Assembly (NCBI GenBank): GCA_030605415.1
Contig: JAUWIJ010000005.1
Span: 2,375 to 66,374 of the forward strand
Direction of reading: 5' to 3'
Length of the DNA stretch: 64,000 nucleotides
Source of the DNA: an archaeon
GTDB taxonomy: Archaea; Nanobdellota; Nanobdellia; Pacearchaeales; GW2011-AR1
The notes beneath the pieces were generated by a model. That model worked only from the letters and a program-made list of their open reading frames with translations. It did not search any database and was not told the origin of the DNA. How positions within the stretch are numbered: the first letter of the stretch is position 1; every line of letters starts with the position of its first letter. The position numbers and the translations under genes were made by a program. Positions 3,466 through 63,780 of the stretch are shown in pieces.

Positions 3466-4467
3466 ATGACAGATAACAATGGAATACGAAGTGGAAGTTT
3501 GCAGTTTTACCCGAGGGTGCGAGCTAAGAAAGTTGTGCCTAGTGTGAATTGGAAACCGGTTTCCAAAGACGGTGTTGGGCTTATGGGTTTTGTTGGGTAT
3601 AAGGTTGGGATGATTTCTGTTTGGGCAAAAGACGGGACTGAGCATTCTATGACAAAAGGTAAAAGGATTTCTATTCCGGCGACTGTTGTTGAGTGTCCTG
3701 TTATGAAAATTTATTCGGTTCGATTCTATAAAAATGGGAAAGTGAGTAAAGACGTTGTTGTTTCTAATGATAAAGATTTGAAAAAGAGTGTTAAACTTTC
3801 TAAGTCGGTTGGTGAATTTAAGGATGTCGTCGCACCCAAGGGTGTACCTCCTGCCCAGATGGCATCTGCTGACGCAGACAAGGTCGGCAATTTTGACGAC
3901 GTTAGGGTGATTATGTATTCTGGCGTGAGAAAAACTTGTGTTGACAAAAACAAGGCAGATATGATTGAGGTTGGGGTTTCGGGTTCTAACGACGAGAAAC
4001 TGGCTTTTATTAAAGAGAATATTGGAAAGGAAATTTTGGTTGGTGATGTTTTTAGTGAAGGGCTCGTTGATGTTCGGGGTGTTACAAAAGGTTATGGAAC
4101 ACAGGGTCCTATGAAAAGATTTGGCATTGCATTGAAATCGCATAAGTCTGAAAAGGGAAGGCGAAGACCTGGCTCTTTGGCACCGTGGCATCCGTCGAGA
4201 GTTACTTTCCGAGCACCTCAGGCTGGGCAAACTGGTTATCATAATAGAATTAGTTATAATAATTTGATTTTAGAAATTGGTAAAATTAAAGAAAAGGATA
4301 TTAACAAGAAAGGTGGGTTTGAACATTATGGGGTTATTAAGACTGATTATATAATTTTGAAGGGTTCGATTCCGGGACCGAAGAAAAGAGGACTTATGGT
4401 TACTACTGCTATTAGACCAACTAAATATCTTGCTAAGAAAAAATTTGAGGTAATTGAGTTACGATGA
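3466..4467 (+). CDS. rpl3: 50S ribosomal protein L3 (uL3), with an in-frame repeat insertion
   Basis: GYKVGM, TKGYGTQGPMKRFG and HKSEKGRRRPGSLAPWHPSRV motifs; first gene of an L3-L4-L23-L2 order. Confidence 0.95.
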   Translation: MTDNNGIRSGSLQFYPRVRAKKVVPSVNWKPVSKDGVGLMGFVGYKVGMISVWAKDGTEHSMTKGKRISIPATVVECPVMKIYSVRFYKNGKVSKDVVVSNDKDLKKSVKLSKSVGEFKDVVAPKGVPPAQMASADADKVGNFDDVRVIMYSGVRKTCVDKNKADMIEVGVSGSNDEKLAFIKENIGKEILVGDVFSEGLVDVRGVTKGYGTQGPMKRFGIALKSHKSEKGRRRPGSLAPWHPSRVTFRAPQAGQTGYHNRISYNNLILEIGKIKEKDINKKGGFEHYGVIKTDYIILKGSIPGPKKRGLMVTTAIRPTKYLAKKKFEVIELR

Positions 4468-4742
4468 AAACAAGAACACAAAACGATAACTCTTTATGTG
4501 GACAAAACTTGCAGTGTTTAAATTATAATAAAGAAGGTTGTTTGATGTATCATACTGGTGTTTGTGATGGTATTATTACATGGGATAATAATCAGCAAGT
4601 TTATTTTGCTGGAGGTGAAAAAAATGGGAGATGTTATTCTTCTGACATTTTAGTGGTGAGAGTATTGGGATTTAAAAGAGCAAGAAAACAAACTAAACTT
4701 CTTGAAAATATTGCAGATAAATTGGGGGCTGACTTTTTATAA
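4464..4742 (+). CDS. orphan small Cys-rich protein inserted between L3 and L4
   Basis: ATGA overlap with the L3 stop and TAATG overlap with the L4 start. Flanked by a direct repeat of ATGAAAACAA (4464 and 4742). No family recognised. Confidence 0.55.
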   Translation: MKTRTQNDNSLCGQNLQCLNYNKEGCLMYHTGVCDGIITWDNNQQVYFAGGEKNGRCYSSDILVVRVLGFKRARKQTKLLENIADKLGADFL

Positions 4743-6222: not shown

Positions 6223-6356
6223 ATGAAATCAAAGATTTCATTTACGGTGTTCGGAGTTCGGGTTGTCGGTGTTACCCTCACAAATATAAAGGAAAATCAG
6301 GTTGGGGCAGGCCCTCGGGGCTTGGGCAACTGTTGTTATGGGAGGTTATTGTTAAA
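6223..6356 (+). repeat. mosaic intercistronic element, copy E1 (hairpin + heptamers + core + tail)
   Basis: ATGAAATCAAAGATTTCAT hairpin directly after the L23 TAA; GGTGTTC-type words; core TACCCTCACAAATATAAAGGAAAATCAGGTTGGGGCAG at 6273-6310; GGGGCTTGGGCAACT tail; GGGAGG before the L2 ATG. Confidence 0.9.
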
Positions 6357-7055: not shown

Positions 7056-7154
7056 AATCTTCGATTGCATCTTTTCGGGTGGTCGGTGGTTCGGACGCTT
7101 CGCTGGTCGGTGTTCGGGGCTTGAGCAACTTGACATGGAGGGGGATGAAATAAA
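7052..7154 (+). repeat. mosaic intercistronic element, copy E2 (core-less)
   Basis: ATGAAATC overlaps the L2 TGA; degenerate hairpin; GGTCGGTGGTTCGGACGCTTCGCTGGTCGGTGTTCGGGGCTTGAGCAACT; GGAGGGGG before the next ATG. Confidence 0.9.
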
Positions 7155-7466
7155 ATGGCAATTTTAATGGATGGCATGGAAAGAGAAAGGGCATGTGTTT
7201 CTTATTTGGAATCTCTTGGGGTACTTGATAGTGAAAGTTTATGTCTTGCTGGGCATAAATATATACTTCGTGTAGATGATGAAGATTCTTTTTATCAAAT
7301 AGCAGAAGCTACTGGAGTTGATAGAATTATAAATTATGATGGTGATGGTTTGGATTTTGAGATACAAATTCCATCAAAACCGCGTAACGATACATGGTTT
7401 GTGTTTTTGAGTTATTGCAAAAGTGACGCTTTTTTAAATAAATATAATATAGGGGGAACACAATAA
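7155..7466 (+). CDS. orphan protein inserted between L2 and S19
   Basis: 103-aa ORF preceded by element E2 and followed 2 nt later by the S19 ATG. No family recognised. Confidence 0.5.
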   Translation: MAILMDGMERERACVSYLESLGVLDSESLCLAGHKYILRVDDEDSFYQIAEATGVDRIINYDGDGLDFEIQIPSKPRNDTWFVFLSYCKSDAFLNKYNIGGTQ

Positions 7467-9732: not shown

Positions 9733-10090
9733 AATGGTAAAGAAAAAAATTGATAAGAAAATTGAGAAGATTGAAGATGTCGAATGTAAGGATAGACTTT
9801 GTCCTAAGCATGGAGATAGAAAATTGAAGATGCGAGGTCGGACTTTTGAGGGTGTTGTGATTAGAAAGCGAAATACTCGGGTTACAATTCAGTTTGAGAG
9901 AATGTTGAAACTGCCGAAGTATGAGAGATATGAAAAAAGGAAAACGAAGATTCACGCGAGACTGCCTGACTGTATGAAAAATGATGTTGCGATTGGAGAC
10001 TTGATTCAGATTACAGAAACTCGACCAATTAGCAAGATGATTCACTTTGTTGTTGTTAAAGTTGTTAAAAAAGTGGAGGCTAAAATATGA
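9725..10090 (+). CDS. rps17: 30S ribosomal protein S17 (uS17)
   Basis: CPKHG, RGRTFEGVVI and GDLIQITETRPISK motifs. Confidence 0.92.
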   Translation: MIKMVKKKIDKKIEKIEDVECKDRLCPKHGDRKLKMRGRTFEGVVIRKRNTRVTIQFERMLKLPKYERYEKRKTKIHARLPDCMKNDVAIGDLIQITETRPISKMIHFVVVKVVKKVEAKI

Positions 10091-10217
10091 AATCAAAGAT
10101 TTCATATTTGCGGTGGTCGGTGGTCGGACGCTACCCTCACAGATATAAAGGAGAAACAGGTTGGGGCACACTGTTCGCTGGTCGGGGTTCGGGGCTTGAG
10201 CAACTGGAGGTACTGAA
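10087..10217 (+). repeat. mosaic intercistronic element, copy E3 (core-bearing)
   Basis: ATGAAATCAAAGATTTCAT overlaps the S17 TGA. The 42-nt core (10132-10173) interrupts GGACGC^TTCGCTGG. GGGGCTTGAGCAACT tail, then GGAGGT. Confidence 0.9.
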
Positions 10218-10577
10218 ATGAAAGGTAGAATAGAAACACAAAAGGCATTTAATAAAGAATCTTTAATTAATAACAAATGGTACAGGATAAATATTGGCTG
10301 TATTTATACAGAAGCAATGTGGGCTAATAACCTCCCTTTTGAAAAAGAGTGCTTTATTAGATTAAACACTGCAGATTATCAAAAAGGAATGGAAGGAAGG
10401 GATATAGAATGTTGGAATGGAGAGATAATTGGATTTTCAAGGGAAGGGAGTGTTCTAATTAATCCCAAAGAATATGGATTAGAATTTATTTACCCAAGAG
10501 ACCCACAATATAATTCTTTACTAGAACAAATGACAAAAACAAAGGAATTTAGAAAATTATTGGAGGTAAAGAAATGA
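10218..10577 (+). CDS. orphan protein inserted between S17 and L14
   Basis: 119-aa ORF with an ATGA overlap at the L14 start. Flanked by a 16-nt imperfect direct repeat, GGAGGTACTGAAATGA at 10206 and GGAGGTAAAGAAATGA at 10562. Confidence 0.5.
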   Translation: MKGRIETQKAFNKESLINNKWYRINIGCIYTEAMWANNLPFEKECFIRLNTADYQKGMEGRDIECWNGEIIGFSREGSVLINPKEYGLEFIYPRDPQYNSLLEQMTKTKEFRKLLEVKK

Positions 10578-12868: not shown

Positions 12869-12986
12869 TATTCGTATTTTCGGTGTTCGGTGTTACCCTC
12901 ACAAATATAAAGGAACATCAGGTTGGGGCAGGCCCTCGGATGGTCGGATGGTCGGGGCTTGAGCAACTAAAGATGGAGGTTTTGGA
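12865..12986 (+). repeat. mosaic intercistronic element, copy E4 (core-bearing, hairpin degenerate)
   Basis: ATGA overlap with the S14 stop; GGTGTTC words; core at 12894-12931; GGGGCTTGAGCAACT; GGAGGT before the S8 ATG. Confidence 0.9.
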
Positions 12987-13364
12987 ATGAGTCAAGATAT
13001 AGTAGCGGATGGGTTAAATCAGATAATGAACGCGAAGCAAATAGGGAAGATGGATATTGTTATTAAGCGGTGCTCTAAGGTCTTGTTGAATTTGTTTGAG
13101 ATAATGAAGGCGGAGGGTCATATTGATTATGAAGTTAATAAGGAAGAGAAAACGGTTAGTGTTAAGGTGATTAAACTGAATAAGTGCAGGGCGATTAAGC
13201 CGAGATATTATGTTGGCGTTGATGGTATTGATAAGTATATGAGGCGATTTTTGCCATCGAGGAATTTCGGCAGTTTGATTATCTCGACAAATATGGGATT
13301 ATTAAATCACAAAGATGCAATTAAAAATAAAGTAGGAGGAAGCGTTATCGCTTATTTTTACTGA
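12987..13364 (+). CDS. rps8: 30S ribosomal protein S8 (uS8)
   Basis: DIVADGLNQIMNA start and GGSVIAYFY end are typical of S8. Confidence 0.93.
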   Translation: MSQDIVADGLNQIMNAKQIGKMDIVIKRCSKVLLNLFEIMKAEGHIDYEVNKEEKTVSVKVIKLNKCRAIKPRYYVGVDGIDKYMRRFLPSRNFGSLIISTNMGLLNHKDAIKNKVGGSVIAYFY

Positions 13365-13552
13365 TGGTAGACGGAGTTGAGCGCTGTAATGATTGTATAT
13401 TTGAAGAAGGGGTCCTAAGAAATACGACCAAGAGCGTGGATGAAAGCTGTTATTGTATTCGTTTTGGGAAAACGAATTCAGATGGCGTAATAGGAGCTAA
13501 GGAATGTTCTATTAATCCTTATTATAAAACTAAGGGAGCCCAAAATGAATAA
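13364..13552 (+). CDS. orphan small Cys-rich protein inserted between S8 and L6
   Basis: TGATG overlap with the S8 stop and an 8-nt overlap (ATGAATAA) with the L6 start. 62 aa with 5 Cys. Confidence 0.45.
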   Translation: MVDGVERCNDCIFEEGVLRNTTKSVDESCYCIRFGKTNSDGVIGAKECSINPYYKTKGAQNE

Positions 13553-14087: not shown

Positions 14088-14190
14088 TGAAATCAAAGAT
14101 TTCATCATCGGTGTTCGGTGGTTCGGACGCTTCGCTGGTCGGTATTCGGGGCTTGGGCAACTGGATGTTATATTGGAGTGTTAAAATAAA
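14087..14190 (+). repeat. mosaic intercistronic element, copy E5 (core-less)
   Basis: TGATGAAATCAAAGATTTCATCA hairpin on the L6 stop; GGTGTTCGGTGGTTCGGACGCTTCGCTGGTCGGTATTCGGGGCTTGGGCAACT. Confidence 0.9.
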
Positions 14191-43067: not shown

Positions 43068-43325
43068 TTAGGTCGCTTCGCTCCCAAATCTCAGAACTGA
43101 GGTCGTTTCACTCTGAGAACTTAGACCGCTTCGCTCTTTGCTTTAGAACTGAGACCGCTCATTTCATTCGCTCTTAGAACTGAGTACCCTCACCTATATA
43201 AAAGAAAAATAGGTTGGGGCAGACTCACCGCTTCGCTCTGAGAACTGCCCCCCGCTTCCCCTCTAAGTTCTCAGTTCTGAGTTCTTGCCAAAGATAGATA
43301 AATAGTTGTTAAAGGTTATGGATTA
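43068..43325. repeat. large composite mosaic element (CGCTTCGCT x3, AGAACT words, one core, conserved 3' tail)
   Basis: Core at 43185-43221. Left AGAACTGAG/GAGAACTTAGA words are mirrored on the right by CTCTAAGTTCTCAGTTCTGAG. Near-duplicate at 63285-63590. Confidence 0.9.
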
Positions 43326-46328: not shown

Positions 46329-46414
46329 GCGTGGATAGTTTAGAGGAAGAATAATTGGCTTCCATAATCTTTTGAAGAGACCAATTGACCGGGGTTCGAG
46401 TCCCCGTCCGCGCA
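46329..46414 (+). tRNA. tRNA, anticodon most likely UCC (Gly), with a 15-nt intron after position 37
   Basis: Hand fold: acceptor GCGTGGA/TCCGCGC; D arm GTTT..GAAT; anticodon stem ATTGG/CCAAT; loop CT-TCC-A then intron TAATCTTTTGAAGAG (46365-46379); T arm CGGGG-TTCGAGT-CCCCG; discriminator A. Confidence 0.7.
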
Positions 46415-49840: not shown

Positions 49841-49924
49841 AATTAAAATCAAAGATTTTAATTTCGGTGTTCGGTGTTCGGTGTTCGGTGTTCGGTGACT
49901 TGGGCAACTTAAGGAGGTTCGGGA
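49837..49924 (+). repeat. mosaic intercistronic element, copy E8 (core-less, four GGTGTTC heptamers)
   Basis: ATGA overlap with the permease stop; 12-bp hairpin GAAATTAAAATC-AAA-GATTTTAATTTC; (GGTGTTC)x4; CTTGGGCAACT tail; AGGAGG. Confidence 0.9.
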
Positions 49925-54179: not shown

Positions 54180-54341
54180 ATGGCAAAAAAATGTATTTAT
54201 TGTTCTGTGGAAATTGATTCTGGTTCGGTTGTTGACATATGCCAGCGTTGTATGTATCAGGTTTGGGGTGAGAAGATGACGAAGGCGATTGTCGAGGGAA
54301 TGGAGAAAGAGAGGGACACGAGCGAGGCATTTGGGACATAA
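54180..54341 (+). CDS. small zinc-ribbon protein (53 aa) whose C-terminus and stop lie in the heptamer repeat
   Basis: My translation is [53 protein letters not shown]. Below the ORF-track size cutoff. Confidence 0.45.
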
Positions 54342-54480
54342 GCGAGGGATTTGGTATTTGGGATTTGGGATTCGTGGGGAACGGGAGCGGGGACAGGGGA
54401 GCGAGGTATTTGGCATTTGGGATTTGGAATTCGTGGGAACGGGGAAACTGAGGAAGGGGGAAGTTGGTAGTGGGGTTGAT
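54300..54480. repeat. mosaic repeat with GGTATTT/GGGATTT heptamers
   Basis: GAGGGACACGAGCGAGGCATTTGGGA and GGTATTTGGGATTTGGGATTCGTGGGG parallel 2255-2320. Confidence 0.85.
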
Positions 54481-57402: not shown

Positions 57403-57508
57403 TGAAATCAGAGATTTCATCATCGGTGTTCGGACGCTTCGCTGTTCGGTGTTCGGACGCTTCGCTGTTCGGGGCTTGGCGGTTAAGTAAAGTTGGGGGA
57501 ATGAAATA
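57399..57508 (+). repeat. mosaic intercistronic element, copy E7 (core-less, two GGACGCTTCGCTGTTCGG units)
   Basis: ATGATGAAATCAGAGATTTCATCA hairpin on the S11 stop. GGTGTTCGGACGCTTCGCTGTTCGG occurs twice. GGGGCTTGGCGG tail variant. Confidence 0.88.
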
Positions 57509-57814
57509 ATGGGAGAAGAACATGTTGCGCCTTATAGTGAGAAAGTTGCTCGAGCTAATGTGAGGGAGGGAAATTTTAGAGATTATGATGGGAATGAGAT
57601 TGGGACTGTAGAAAATTTAGTTGCAGAGTTTACTGATGCTTTTTATCAAATTAATATGTGGGTAAGTGGCAGGATGGCTGGCACAAGAATCAAAGATACT
57701 GTGAATAATTATAAAGCCATAAGATACTGCTATAATCATGATACGCATGGAATGGATGATAAAATAAATGAAGAATTGAGGCATTATTCTTGCACTTTTG
57801 GTGTTAAGATATAA
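57509..57814 (+). CDS. orphan protein inserted between S11 and RpoD
   Basis: 101-aa ORF whose start overlaps the stop (TAATG) of the element-spanning frame. No family recognised. Confidence 0.45.
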   Translation: MGEEHVAPYSEKVARANVREGNFRDYDGNEIGTVENLVAEFTDAFYQINMWVSGRMAGTRIKDTVNNYKAIRYCYNHDTHGMDDKINEELRHYSCTFGVKI

Positions 57815-58608: not shown

Positions 58609-58971
58609 ATGGATATAAAAATAAGCAAAACAAAAATAGAGAAAAGAATGAAACACAAGATGAATGTTTCTTTAGTCGAGGTTATCGTAAAATTGAAAAA
58701 GACTAATCCTATTGTTGCGAAAGAGTTAGCTCGACCGAAGCGAAGATGGCCTGCGATTAATTTGAAAGATATCGATATGATTAAGGGCGATGTTTTGATT
58801 GCGGGGAAAGTTTTGAGTGCTGGTGATTTGAGTGGGGCGAAGAAAATTGTTGCGTGGTCTGCGTCGGGTAGGGCGGCTGAAAAAATTAAGGGCGCGAAGG
58901 GAACATTTATTTCGATTATTGATGAAATGAAGAAAAATCCTGAACTAAATGGTTATGATATTTTGCGATGA
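58609..58971 (+). CDS. rpl18e: 50S ribosomal protein L18e (eL18)
   Basis: Position between rpoD and L13; ARPKRRWPAINL and GKVLSAGDL motifs. Confidence 0.85.
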   Translation: MDIKISKTKIEKRMKHKMNVSLVEVIVKLKKTNPIVAKELARPKRRWPAINLKDIDMIKGDVLIAGKVLSAGDLSGAKKIVAWSASGRAAEKIKGAKGTFISIIDEMKKNPELNGYDILR

Positions 58972-59210
58972 ATCCACTTAACGATAAAGAATATTGCGGA
59001 ATAATCGTTCATGAGAATTCTGGAACTACTGAGGTTAATTTATATGGAGCCAACAGAAAATATATGTATGGTAATGTGTTGTCTAGTCAAGTGGCCCTTT
59101 TGGAGGGAAAATCTTGCCTTGCCGGAGGGAAAATGAGTCATTTTTGGACGGACACTCCTTCTGTATTTGAAGAATTGATTAGGAATGCGAAGGAGTTGAA
59201 AAATGAGTAA
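58968..59210 (+). CDS. orphan protein inserted between L18e and L13
   Basis: ATGA overlap with the L18e stop and an 8-nt overlap (ATGAGTAA) with the L13 start. No family recognised. Confidence 0.45.
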   Translation: MNPLNDKEYCGIIVHENSGTTEVNLYGANRKYMYGNVLSSQVALLEGKSCLAGGKMSHFWTDTPSVFEELIRNAKELKNE

Positions 59211-60019: not shown

Positions 60020-60095
60020 ACGGAATGAGGCATTTGGGATTTGGTCGCTTCGCTTTTTGGGATTTGTGGGGAAAGGGAATTGAGGGGGAAGGATG
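60020..60095. repeat. short mosaic repeat (GGGATTT words around GGTCGCTTCGCT)
   Basis: GGCATTTGGGATTTGGTCGCTTCGCTTTTTGGGATTTGTGGGGAAAGGG. Confidence 0.8.
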
Positions 60096-60647: not shown

Positions 60648-61187
60648 TTAAGTTTTGTGTTTCCGAGGTCTCAAATATGTTTTTAGTTTTCTTTGAACTG
60701 CGTAAAATATTTCTGGGTTGATTATTGGTTGGTGGTCGCCTTTGTGAATTTTGCCGTCGAATTTTATTTCTCCGAGATATGTTCTATTTGTCAGAATTTT
60801 TTTTAGACCGTTGACTGAAAGAGAGAAATTTTTTGCAAGAGAATTTAGGGAGTAGTTTCGATTTAAGAATGTTCGGAATAGTGAGTGGACTCTGACTGCG
60901 TCTTCATTTGGTATTAAATTGCCGTTGACAACGTCGTATCCGAGGGGGGCTCGTGTGACAAGTCGTCCGATGCTCGCCATTTTTTCCATTCCTTGTTTTT
61001 GTTTTTTGCCCGGAAATTGTTTGTATTTTCTAAAGGTATCAAGAATTTTCCAGTCAATTTTTTCGGCAATATAATTTTGGAAGTCGTGAATTTTATCTGG
61101 AGCAAATGTAGTACAAATCGGACATAAAGGACTTCCGAAAATTACCTTTTCTTTTTTATCTGAGTAGCCACATTTTTTACATGTCAT
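60648..61187 (-). CDS. zinc-ribbon + 'recombinase' domain protein lacking a resolvase catalytic domain
   Basis: RAPLGYDVVNGNLIPNEDAVRVHSLFRTFL...LKKILTNRTYLGEIKF...HQPIINPEIFYAVQ matches the middle domain of large serine recombinases. The N-terminus is CxxC...CxxC instead of a Ser-catalytic domain. Confidence 0.6.
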   Translation of the reverse strand: MTCKKCGYSDKKEKVIFGSPLCPICTTFAPDKIHDFQNYIAEKIDWKILDTFRKYKQFPGKKQKQGMEKMASIGRLVTRAPLGYDVVNGNLIPNEDAVRVHSLFRTFLNRNYSLNSLAKNFSLSVNGLKKILTNRTYLGEIKFDGKIHKGDHQPIINPEIFYAVQRKLKTYLRPRKHKT

Positions 61188-62065: not shown

Positions 62066-62890
62066 TTATAAGTTATCTATTGGGGATTTTATTTTTTTTA
62101 TTTGTTCTGTTGAGACGTGAGTGTATATTTGTGTCGTCGATAAATCGGCGTGTCCGAGTAGTTCCTGAATGTGCCTTATATCGATTCCGCTTTCTAATAG
62201 GTGAGTTGCGAATGAGTGTCTGAGCGTGTGACAATGGACGCCTTTTAGTCCGGCTCGGTTGGCGGCCGATGAAACTATTTTTTGGATGTTTCTCGTGGAG
62301 AGTTTTCCGTTTCGCCCCGTGAATAGATATTCTTTTCCTTTTTGTTTTTCCGTCTGATATTGAAGTTCGTCGGTTAAAAATTCTGGGATGTTAAAAATTC
62401 TGTCTTTGTTTCCCTTTGCCTGACGAATGTAACCAATTTTTTCTGGGAAATTTAGGTTTGCAATTTTTAAATTTACTAATTCAGAAACTCGGAACCCACA
62501 GGCATACATTAGACTGACTATTAGTTTTGATTTTTCGGTTTTGAGTTCTTCGAGTAATTTTTTAATTTCGTCTTTTGATAAAATTGTCGGGAGTTGTTGT
62601 TCTTTTTTTGGTCGTTTGATTGAGGCGGTGATATCGTTGTTGAAGATTGAGAGGTAGGCATATTTGATTGCGGAGAGAAAAAGTATGATTGACATTGCGG
62701 CCTTGTCGGTTAGGTTTTCGGCGATGAAAAGTTTGACATCTTCTGTTGTGATTTTATCTGGAGATTTATTTATGAAGTTTAATAATTTTTTATTTGATTT
62801 GACGTAATTACGAATAGTGTGGCTTGAGTTTTTTGATATTTTTAGCTCTACCTCTATTTTTTTTAGAAATTCGTCTGAGTTCATTTTCAC
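62066..62890 (-). CDS. xerA: tyrosine recombinase, XerA/XerC/D-like
   Basis: GFRVSEL, HTLRHSFATHLL and LLGHADLSTTQIYTHV catalytic motifs. Confidence 0.88.
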   Translation of the reverse strand: MKMNSDEFLKKIEVELKISKNSSHTIRNYVKSNKKLLNFINKSPDKITTEDVKLFIAENLTDKAAMSIILFLSAIKYAYLSIFNNDITASIKRPKKEQQLPTILSKDEIKKLLEELKTEKSKLIVSLMYACGFRVSELVNLKIANLNFPEKIGYIRQAKGNKDRIFNIPEFLTDELQYQTEKQKGKEYLFTGRNGKLSTRNIQKIVSSAANRAGLKGVHCHTLRHSFATHLLESGIDIRHIQELLGHADLSTTQIYTHVSTEQIKKIKSPIDNL

Positions 62891-63284: not shown

Positions 63285-63590
63285 GGTCGCTTCGCTCCCC
63301 ATAGAACTTAGAATTGAGTACCCTCACTTATATAAAAGAAAAATAGGTTGGGGCAGACTCACCGCTTCGCTCTTTGCTTTAGAATTGAGACCGCTCATTT
63401 CATTCGCTCTTAGAACTGAGTACCCTACCATATATAAAAGATAAATATGTTGGGGCAGACCCACCGCTTCGCTCTGAGAACTGTCCCCCGCTTTCCCCTC
63501 TGAGTTCTGAGATCTGAGTTCTGGAAAAACATAATGTTTTTCCTACAGTTCTTGCCAGAGATAGATGAATAGTCGTTAAAGGTTATATAT
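63285..63590. repeat. large composite mosaic element with two cores; paralog of 43068-43325
   Basis: Cores at 63319-63355 and 63421-63458. Shares CGCTTCGCT units, AGAACT/AGAATT words and the tail GTTCTTGCCAGAGATAGATGAATAGTCGTTAAAGGTTAT with 43068-43325. Confidence 0.9.
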
Positions 63591-63663: not shown

Positions 63664-63780
63664 TAATTTTGGGGCATCTTTTTCTGGAAAAAGATGAGAG
63701 TTAACTCGCGCCACCTGGCGTACCCCAATACCCAATACTTTGGGGCAACTTTTTCTGGAAAAAGATGAGAGTTAACTCTC
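63664..63780. repeat. two about 40-nt direct repeats, each with a 9-bp hairpin, separated by about 31 nt
   Basis: TTTGGGGCA(TC/AC)TTTTTCTGGAAAAAGATGAGAGTTAACTC at about 63666 and about 63738. Confidence 0.7.

Follow-up and report, generated by a model that had tools for sequence, protein, structure and literature searches.

What is a block of 42 nt doing at the same exact point of another short repeat, again and again, in the spacers of an archaeal ribosomal-protein operon? This question is raised by a 64-kb stretch of DNA (hereafter the window), which corresponds to positions 21751-85750 of the metagenomic contig ENA ERZ4220937 NODE_20 (99,802 nt). An earlier reading made from the letters alone (the sequence-only reading) had proposed that the block is an element within an element with fixed length and ends, and this proposal is now supported by pairs of filled and empty sites and by stepwise un-nesting. 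We consider it probable that the 42-nt core is a discrete mobile mini-element that is also translated, and the best explanation of the core is that it belongs to a family of very small non-autonomous mobile elements in a low-GC archaeal lineage of the DPANN type (Nanoarchaeota-like). The genomes of DPANN archaea are very small and densely packed with genes, and they are regarded as poor in selfish DNA; in a full-text literature search, neither these motifs nor such elements were found to be described in this lineage.

The exact 42-mer, TACCCTCACAGATATAAA(G/A)GAGAAACAGGTTGGGGCAC(A/G)CTG, occurs on the + strand at 10132, 16700 and 20649, where shuffled sequences would be expected to yield 0.00 matches, and in all three places it is flanked by GGACGC on the left and TTCGCT on the right; the insertion of the core at one exact point of its backbone (GGACGC^TTCGCT), as first described, is thereby confirmed. 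A looser search of the window recovered nine units, 9/9 of them on the + strand (Table 1), and three further units, one of them on the - strand, lie just to the left of the window on the same contig. In the window and in two archaeal genome bins, the unit is composed of a left arm (TACCCTCAC), an 18-nt loop, a right arm (GGTTGGGGCA) and a 5-nt tail, which sum to 42 nt. Family-wide, the arms are invariant, even between copies with unrelated loops, the loop varies from 16 to 20 nt, and the tail follows the pattern NNCNN with its central C; the purine-loop subfamily totals 42 nt and the AT-loop subfamilies 41-43 nt. Variable boundaries or lengths had been named as an outcome that would speak against a discrete insert, and the catalogue speaks for fixed size and ends: 29 of its 42 copies are exactly 42 nt long, and the remaining 13 measure 43 nt (n=9) or 41 nt (n=4). 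The density of units in the lineage is about one per 5-7 kb. Metagenome contigs were scanned with a pattern of 38 nt from arm to arm, not 37 nt, and returned only 43-nt AT-loop relatives (L007-L014), so that the 42-nt form is under-sampled in metagenomes. Two matches on viral contigs of ~50% GC, which carry no other copies, were treated as chance. No Rfam covariance model placed a family over the units, either at the gathering threshold or at E<=1, and the peptides translated from the three frames of the unit found no match in a search whose word index does not reach 14-residue inserts.

Close relatives, found through their L18 protein, provide empty sites. In one of them (L015), whose flanking genes are ~95% identical to those of the window, the S14/S8 spacer has base for base the same backbone minus exactly 12894-12935, with no target duplication and nothing else missing; two others (L016, L020) have the same short spacer. 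The empty site shows directly that the b-type boundaries lie at GGTGT^TCGG, and it corrects the second subtype, which had been drawn as 38 nt (6273-6310, 12894-12931) between GGTGT and GCCCTCGG and is really 42 nt long (6273-6314, 12894-12935). A second pair is formed by a 59-nt module within coding sequence (GCACCCAAGGGTG^TACCTCC...), which is empty in the window, whereas both copies of it in L003, another archaeal genome bin, are filled by the 42-nt unit. Target-site duplication is missing in both pairs, and the parses with a duplication that were tried (of the 5-nt tail, TA or TACC) are all ruled out by the S14/S8 pair. The composite spacers at L23/L2 (135 nt), S17/next gene and L6/L32e are wholly absent from L015. 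Signs of recent activity are the identity of the copies at 10132 and 16700 and the existence of ~95%-identical relatives without the units and most of the composites. The 59-nt module, which encodes APKGVPPAQMASADADKVG, is found in L3, L22 and the C-terminus of P0/L10 (L021 2361) of the contig and in two genes of another bin; it represents a second, in-gene type of repeat that is also a target for the 42-nt unit.

Units also reside within units. When the inner unit is removed, an intact outer 42-mer is restored, through up to three levels in L002 and also in L004 and L001; in every case the nested unit interrupts the loop of the outer one at A^A, behind nt 23 or 24, and points the same way as it. 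Head-to-tail arrays occur in L002, L005, L007, L008 and L012, and although some decayed or truncated fragments are present in L005, precise units predominate.

The sequence-only reading had pointed out that the length is a multiple of three, and this matters: the unit is 14 codons long and keeps the frame, and copies in coding sequence leave the reading frames open. The L18 protein of the window has 188 aa, compared with 161-162 aa in relatives that are 88-89% identical, and its 26 extra residues comprise a CTCAGAA-type insert, which itself encloses a unit that is read as VPSQIQKKKRLGQT. The loop of this unit is ATACAAA, not ATATAAA, which removes a TAA stop in that phase, and the copy differs from its eleven siblings on the genome by exactly this T>C change. 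The closest L18 proteins are from uncultured archaea, one of which is labelled Nanoarchaeota. In related bins, the large subunit of DNA polymerase D (PolD DP2) contains five units, one of them a triple nest, in a long intact open reading frame (ORF); a PP-loop ATPase contains a double nest, and a metallo-beta-lactamase/RNase Z-like protein and L31e contain units, likewise within intact ORFs. The coding copies in these four proteins and L18 use all three phases with no stop in any, and in phase 1 every one of them is without the TAA that the canonical ATATAAA loop would give. Because this pattern shows selection for an open frame, the unit would be translated rather than spliced out. Six other archaeal L18 homologues (P0022, P0025, P0040, P0047, P0068 and P0094) carry different inserts of 12-22 aa at the same position (e.g. 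GASPGITSKKGTS.E..SSSG; alignment A1, columns 111-140), and the L18 loop appears to be a recurrent landing site for short in-frame modules.

The further suggestion that the core is inserted site-specifically does not hold. The 42 catalogued copies have 38 distinct flank contexts, which share nothing beyond A at -1 and A/T at +1: the +1 base is A or T in 31/31 non-tandem contexts (P ~1e-6 given composition) and in 38/38 overall, the -1 base is A in 21/38, positions -6 to -1 are otherwise variable, and C is enriched at the four positions that follow +1. Because no target sequence is common to these contexts, insertion is not site-specific in the usual sense, and there is only a loose A^W preference. 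The junction can be placed with an ambiguity of 1-4 nt (T, TA or TACC); for the a- and b-type sites this amounts to 1 nt, a single T. Tail and left flank were compared for a relation of the kind expected from IS608-like guide pairing, and none was found. Of the 12 copies on the contig, 11 are on the + strand, and the lone - copy lies in a convergent spacer, on the side of the - gene. One orientation prevails almost without exception within nests and tandem arrays, as it does in relation to local transcription.

If insertion is not site-specific, the repeated a-type junction has to be accounted for in another way. The region around the 10132 copy is an archaeal ribosomal-protein operon (L2, S17, S14, S8, L6, L32e, L18/L5e and L30, with SecY and an EMC3-like gene after them, as assigned by Pfam), in DNA of 30-40% G+C with a very strong G-over-C skew of about +0.4 on the coding strand. 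In the composite spacer that hosts this copy, the stop codon is covered by a hairpin; there follow GGTGKTC heptads rich in G, then the GGACGC/TTCGCT module, then GGGGCTTGAGCAACT, and a Shine-Dalgarno sequence comes last. In an alignment of the composite spacers, the unit stands out as a clean block in a common backbone of stop-codon hairpin, GGTGKTC heptads, an optional GGACGC/TTCGCT module, GGGGCTTGRGCAACT and Shine-Dalgarno sequence. Over 142 nt, 10067-10208 and 16635-16776 agree at 90% of positions, and the units that they enclose are identical; the three GGACGC^TTCGCT junctions are therefore not independent events, and a composite already bearing the unit was copied.

The core-less copies known at 7093 and 14125 were confirmed, and two more uninterrupted GGACGCTTCGCT sites were found in the window, at 57432 and 57455. 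Positions 7078-7101, a 24-nt stretch (TGGTCGGTGGTTCGGACGCTTCGC) that holds the core-less GGACGCTTCGC motif, form a clean indel relative to the L2/S19 spacer of L015, and the backbone module is therefore also a discrete insert or duplication; it is doubled in tandem at 57417-57466. Since the GGACGCTTCGC stretch is itself a 24-nt indel and the larger composites are absent from L015, the a-type context is a unit inside a module inside a heptad spacer, with nesting of at least three levels. Many spacers of the window are mosaics of a few short modules. In the stop-codon hairpin, ATGAAATC-NNNN-GATTTCAT, the loop is inverted between two composites that are otherwise 90% identical (AAAG at 10090-10102, CTTT at 16658-16670). 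G-rich heptad arrays are common and strand-asymmetric (e.g. 2220-2405, 49855-49902, 54333-54450, 60020-60079), and in the whole window there are 35 occurrences of GGGATTT but 2 of its complement; the corresponding counts for GGTGTTC are 14 and 1. A 103-aa ORF without a Pfam match (7155-7466) lies between L2 and S19, directly after the core-less composite spacer, and is absent in L015.

Table 1. Units, uninterrupted sites and related modules in the window (^ marks the point of insertion).
Feature	Position	Strand	Context
b-type unit, tail GGCCC	6273-6314	+	L23/L2 composite spacer, GGTGT^TCGG
a-type unit, tail CACTG	10132-10173	+	S17/next-gene composite spacer, GGACGC^TTCGCT
b-type unit, tail GGCCC	12894-12935	+	S14/S8 spacer, GGTGT^TCGG; empty orthologous site known
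Unit in L18 coding sequence, in frame	15321-15362	+	reads VPSQIQKKKRLGQT
a-type unit, 42/42 identical to 10132 copy	16700-16741	+	S5/L30 spacer
a-type unit, 2 substitutions, tail CGCTG	20649-20690	+	HIT/EMC3-like spacer
d-type unit, tail GACTC, arms extended by CCTAT/ATAGG	43185-43226	+	CTGAG^ACCGC, repeat cluster between convergent genes
d-type unit	63319-63360	+	downstream of zinc-ribbon gene
d-type unit, diverged	63421-63462	+	5 positions differ from public contig
L18 gene, 188 aa	15002-15568	+	26-aa insert (about 15281-15375) containing unit
Composite spacer element hosting unit	10078-10217	+	absent in L015
Uninterrupted GGACGC^TTCGCT (a-type site without unit)	7093-7104	+	L2/next-gene spacer
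Uninterrupted GGACGC^TTCGCT	14125-14136	+	L6/L32e spacer
Two tandem uninterrupted GGACGCTTCGCT modules	57432-57466	+	S11/next-gene spacer; starts 57432, 57455
59-nt coding module (APKGVPPAQMASADADKVG) in L3	3832-3890	+	GGGTG^TACC point 3844/3845 empty
Second 59-nt coding module, in L22	7917-7975	+	insertion point 7929/7930 empty

The invariant arms are the feature that whatever moves the unit would recognise. They pair as T-A, A.C, C-G, C-G, C-G, T.G, C.T, A-T and C-G, and the mismatches are essentially as invariant as the pairs; the 37-nt arm-loop-arm part thus has six Watson-Crick pairs and one T.G among nine arm positions. Because the arms do not vary, covariation analysis yielded no information, and pairing at positions 10-18 is no more frequent than with shuffled partners. 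Folding z-scores below -2 were obtained only for the d-type copies, with their CCTAT/ATAGG-extended arms, and for the AT-loop copy of L011. To us, the conservation of the arms looks like sequence recognition of both of them, perhaps in a folded single strand. The window and the public ENA contig are identical over an overlap of ~24 kb except at 63427, 63428, 63430, 63442 and 63448, all of which fall inside the unit at 63421-63462 (public version TACCCTCACCTATATAAAAGAGAAATAGGTTGGGG); two of these changes look compensatory. A strain variant, an assembly variant or an editing of the window may lie behind the five differences, and the 'compensatory' changes in this copy were not used, as they are exactly the positions that differ.

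DNA insertion without target duplication is known from HUH single-strand transposases, site-specific recombinases and RNA-based reverse splicing. We infer that the unit is a non-autonomous element resembling repetitive extragenic palindromic sequences (REPs) and Rickettsia palindromic elements (RPEs), possibly moved as single-stranded DNA. An enzyme supplied in trans would recognise the two invariant arms and carry out a strand-specific, single-strand cut- or copy-and-paste of the HUH type, similar to that of REPs and their REP-associated tyrosine transposases (RAYTs), of the insertion sequences IS200/IS605, or of IS91 and Helitrons; the target may be the G-rich non-template strand of heavily transcribed operons. 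In the window, the unit entered pre-existing G-rich composite spacers of the ribosomal-protein operon, after which the unit-bearing composite was copied; its landing places also include other short repeats, coding sequence and, after nt 23-24, the loop of copies of itself. The HUH-type step is proposed because there are no terminal inverted repeats reaching both ends, no duplication and a strict strand polarity, and because the arm mismatches are fixed and the G-rich non-template strand is preferred; we put this step forward tentatively, as a possibility to which we would give rather less than even weight.

Several observations weigh against this picture of a mobile unit and its mover. In ~81 kb of the 99.8-kb contig (Pfam; more than 30 ORFs and both contig extensions), no HUH, DDE or reverse-transcriptase gene was detected, so that the co-occurring reverse transcriptase or transposase envisaged by the sequence-only reading was not seen there. 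The sole mobilising candidates on the contig are a XerA-like tyrosine recombinase (62066-62884) and an ORF with a Recombinase domain (60648-61187). Across the 38 contexts, no IS200/IS605-like target of 4-5 nt precedes the unit, and the units carry no REP-like GTAG/CGTC tag, beginning with TACC and ending with NNCNN. Most copies fold no better than shuffled sequences, as DNA or as RNA; the hairpin is weak and without covariation, and a structured single-strand substrate is putative. A coding copy (L008 1355) and the locus adjacent to endA are antisense to local genes. At S14/S8, where three relatives are empty, insertion would be favoured over precise excision on grounds of parsimony. Finally, all copies come from metagenome assemblies of a few populations.

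A bolder version of the same idea is that the unit represents a new class of minimal mobile element, consisting of only two recognition arms of 9-10 nt, which a host enzyme or another archaeal enzyme would move on exposed single-stranded DNA or RNA and which, being a stop-poor 14 codons, could colonise the essential proteins of tiny DPANN genomes. It might gain access through the non-template strand in operons with high transcription, or be handled by enzymes of RNA processing, for example the splicing endonuclease, whose gene is next to a conserved relative of the unit; new peptide loops, and spacers built of nested layers, would then keep arising from it. We regard this version as unlikely.

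The strongest rival explanation, quite improbable as we judge it, gives the unit mainly a function in cis, as a promoter, terminator, insulator or protein-binding site that spread with its backbone through recombination or gene conversion rather than transposition. The ATATAAA of the loops in the window is TTTATAT on the minus strand, similar to the native boxes, TTTTATA(T/A), that lie upstream of tRNA and 5S genes, copies are located 70-100 nt upstream of start codons led by a Shine-Dalgarno sequence, and the a-type composites were clearly copied whole; moreover, in five diverged contigs a 43-nt relative is kept between the endA stop codon and the next TATA box, with its arms invariant and its loops drifting. 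However, other subfamilies do not conserve the TATA-like loop (they have ATTCAAAACAAA, ATAAAAGGGAAA or AT-rich loops), the S14/S8 pair differs by the unit alone in a backbone that is otherwise identical, and no regulatory role explains nested and tandem units or units inside the coding sequences of five unrelated proteins. The promoter idea in particular was set aside: the TATA-like loop belongs to one subfamily only and fits the native boxes solely in reverse orientation. The spacer next to endA, the gene for the tRNA-splicing endonuclease (Pfam tRNA_int_endo, E=3e-27), is filled by one or two 43-nt relatives in L008, L010, L012, L013 and L014 (e.g. L010 1231-1273, minus strand), which could be a coincidence or a functional link.

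The proximity to endA is also relevant to the proposal that the unit moves through RNA, as an intron-like sequence or a retro-inserted small RNA, with the help of, for example, the tRNA splicing endonuclease and ligase or a reverse transcriptase. In agreement with such a route, the units are strongly biased towards the sense orientation of transcription, and in a convergent spacer they point opposite ways on either side; T6.G32, which is invariant, pairs well only as RNA, and folding predictions give all copies a common RNA structure. This route is nevertheless disfavoured, and we consider it very unlikely, because the avoidance of stop codons in the used frame would be needless if the unit were spliced out, because inspection revealed no bulge-helix-bulge (BHB) geometry (the flanks differ everywhere and the arms are without the 3-nt/4-bp/3-nt arrangement) and because no reverse transcriptase was found in the contig; there is also no Rfam match, and the copy abutting endA is antisense to it.

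A site-specific recombinase, either tyrosine (IntI- or Xer-like) or serine, might instead insert the unit as a folded single strand or a tiny circle. The lack of target duplication would suit such an enzyme, the GTTGGGG of the right arm resembles the integron core GTTRRRY, and the XerA-like gene lies ~400 nt from the 63319/63421 cluster with the Recombinase-domain ORF nearby. Recombinases are disfavoured because the targets are without a common core sequence; in addition, the boundaries of the unit are not at G^TT, its arms are too short for two recombinase-binding boxes, and the gene looks like an ordinary single-copy archaeal XerA with no units on its other side, all of which makes this explanation highly improbable. 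Least credible is a conventional double-strand miniature transposable element with inverted repeats (MITE) whose 9-bp imperfect inverted repeats are recognised by a DDE transposase, for although TACCCTCAC and the right-arm complement TGCCCCAAC match at 6/9 positions and the arm-to-arm part starts with TA and ends with CA-3' like many DDE transposon ends, it is disfavoured because neither verified filled/empty pair has a target-site duplication and there are no true terminal repeats (the right repeat lies 5 nt inside the end of the element), and nests and arrays are strictly direct and no DDE gene was seen in the contig.

Other features of the contig merit description. The last 17 nt of secY (AAGGGATTTTTTGGGGC, 19581-19597) are repeated ~1 kb downstream at 20601-20617, and the two repeats bracket a gene of the 23S-rRNA-IVP family (19712-20089) and a HIT gene (20102-20578), neither of which separates secY from the EMC3-like gene in L015; the pair looks like a cassette inserted with a 17-nt direct repeat. 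Other small ORFs amid the ribosomal operons are located at 4464-4742, 10218-10577, 13364-13552, 57509-57814 and 58968-59210. A 40-nt repeat, TTTGGGGCA-N-CTTTTTCTGGAAAAAGATGAGAGTTAACTC, is present in two copies (63668-63707 and 63739-63778) where genes are sparse, between the XerA-like gene and cdc6; it contains a dyad and bears the octamer TTGGGGCA, which it has in common with the right arm of the unit. The Cdc6/Orc1 gene is ~7 kb further right (L023 1459-2673), and the repeat may be origin-related. At 46329-46414, Rfam recognises an 86-nt tRNA (54 bits) that ARAGORN did not call, and this may be an intron-containing tRNA.

Returning to the 42-nt unit as a mobile element, we note that it is found in the ribosomal-protein operon, in a replicative polymerase and in its own copies, and that its distribution varies between relatives with ~95% identical genes. 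If our interpretation is correct, the units are among the smallest mobile elements described, and they would be an archaeal counterpart of REPs and RPEs and a source of 14-residue insertions in essential proteins. In practice, the units break assemblies, create spurious small ORFs and inflate the apparent divergence of phylogenetic marker proteins. The mover, once found, could reveal a new strand-specific DNA insertion activity that works without target duplication.

How does the unit compare with known systems? Clustered regularly interspaced short palindromic repeat (CRISPR) arrays have identical repeats, unique spacers of at least 25 nt and cas genes; tandem units would imply 'repeats' of 24 nt and low-complexity 'spacers' of 16-20 nt, and solitary, nested and coding copies exist. 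BHB introns and transposed tRNA introns are, like the unit, short, archaeal and oriented, and Fujishima and colleagues reportedly described in 2010 the spread of short archaeal introns between genes in Thermoproteales; the unit, by contrast, has no BHB motif and would be translated rather than removed. Archaeal MITEs (e.g. of Sulfolobus and Haloquadratum) are also short non-autonomous repeats, but they measure 80-350 bp, have true terminal inverted repeats and target duplications and are derived from known insertion sequences, whereas the right arm of the unit lies 5 nt inside its 3' end and its arms are matched at 6/9 positions. More similarity is seen with palindrome-associated transposable elements (PATEs, derived from IS200/IS605), IS91 and Helitrons, which have no terminal inverted repeats at both ends, cause no duplication and insert strand-specifically, and which share with the unit a hairpin close to the 3' end with a few nucleotides beyond it; the A^W preference is also reminiscent of the A^T site used by Helitrons. 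These elements are nonetheless far longer and have two distinct ends, whereas the unit has a single arm pair and no distinct subterminal hairpins, and IS200/IS605 requires a fixed target of 4-5 nt 5' of its left end, which the unit does not have, nor was an HUH gene identified in the part of the contig that was searched.

RPEs are reportedly selfish repeats, described by Ogata and colleagues in 2000, that are inserted in frame in the genes of proteins, essential genes among them, and are translated into additional stretches of peptide. The unit resembles them in being in frame in conserved genes with the ORF preserved, and differs in that RPEs are ~100-150 nt long, bacterial (Rickettsia) and unrelated in sequence; to our knowledge, RPEs have not been described as nesting within themselves at one fixed internal point. 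The REPs of bacteria, their bacterial interspersed mosaic elements (BIMEs) and the RAYTs (HUH Y1) offer a further parallel: they are imperfect palindromes of 20-40 nt, as the unit may be too, and like it they keep their mismatches conserved, have a short extension at one end that is conserved as well, are highly repeated and combined with other short motifs into mosaic spacers, and cause no target duplication. REPs are occasionally found inside genes, and RPE-1 is mentioned in the same paper (PMC3733652). The unit is distinguished from REPs by the absence of the GTAG/CGTC tag, by direct tandem and nested arrangement rather than inverted pairs (REPINs), and by its frequent location in coding sequence, its weak hairpin and its archaeal host; no RAYT gene was seen in the searched part of the contig. 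The unit thus departs from the defining features of a REP, MITE, PATE, BHB intron, CRISPR array or promoter, and in kind it resembles REP/BIME mosaics and RPEs.

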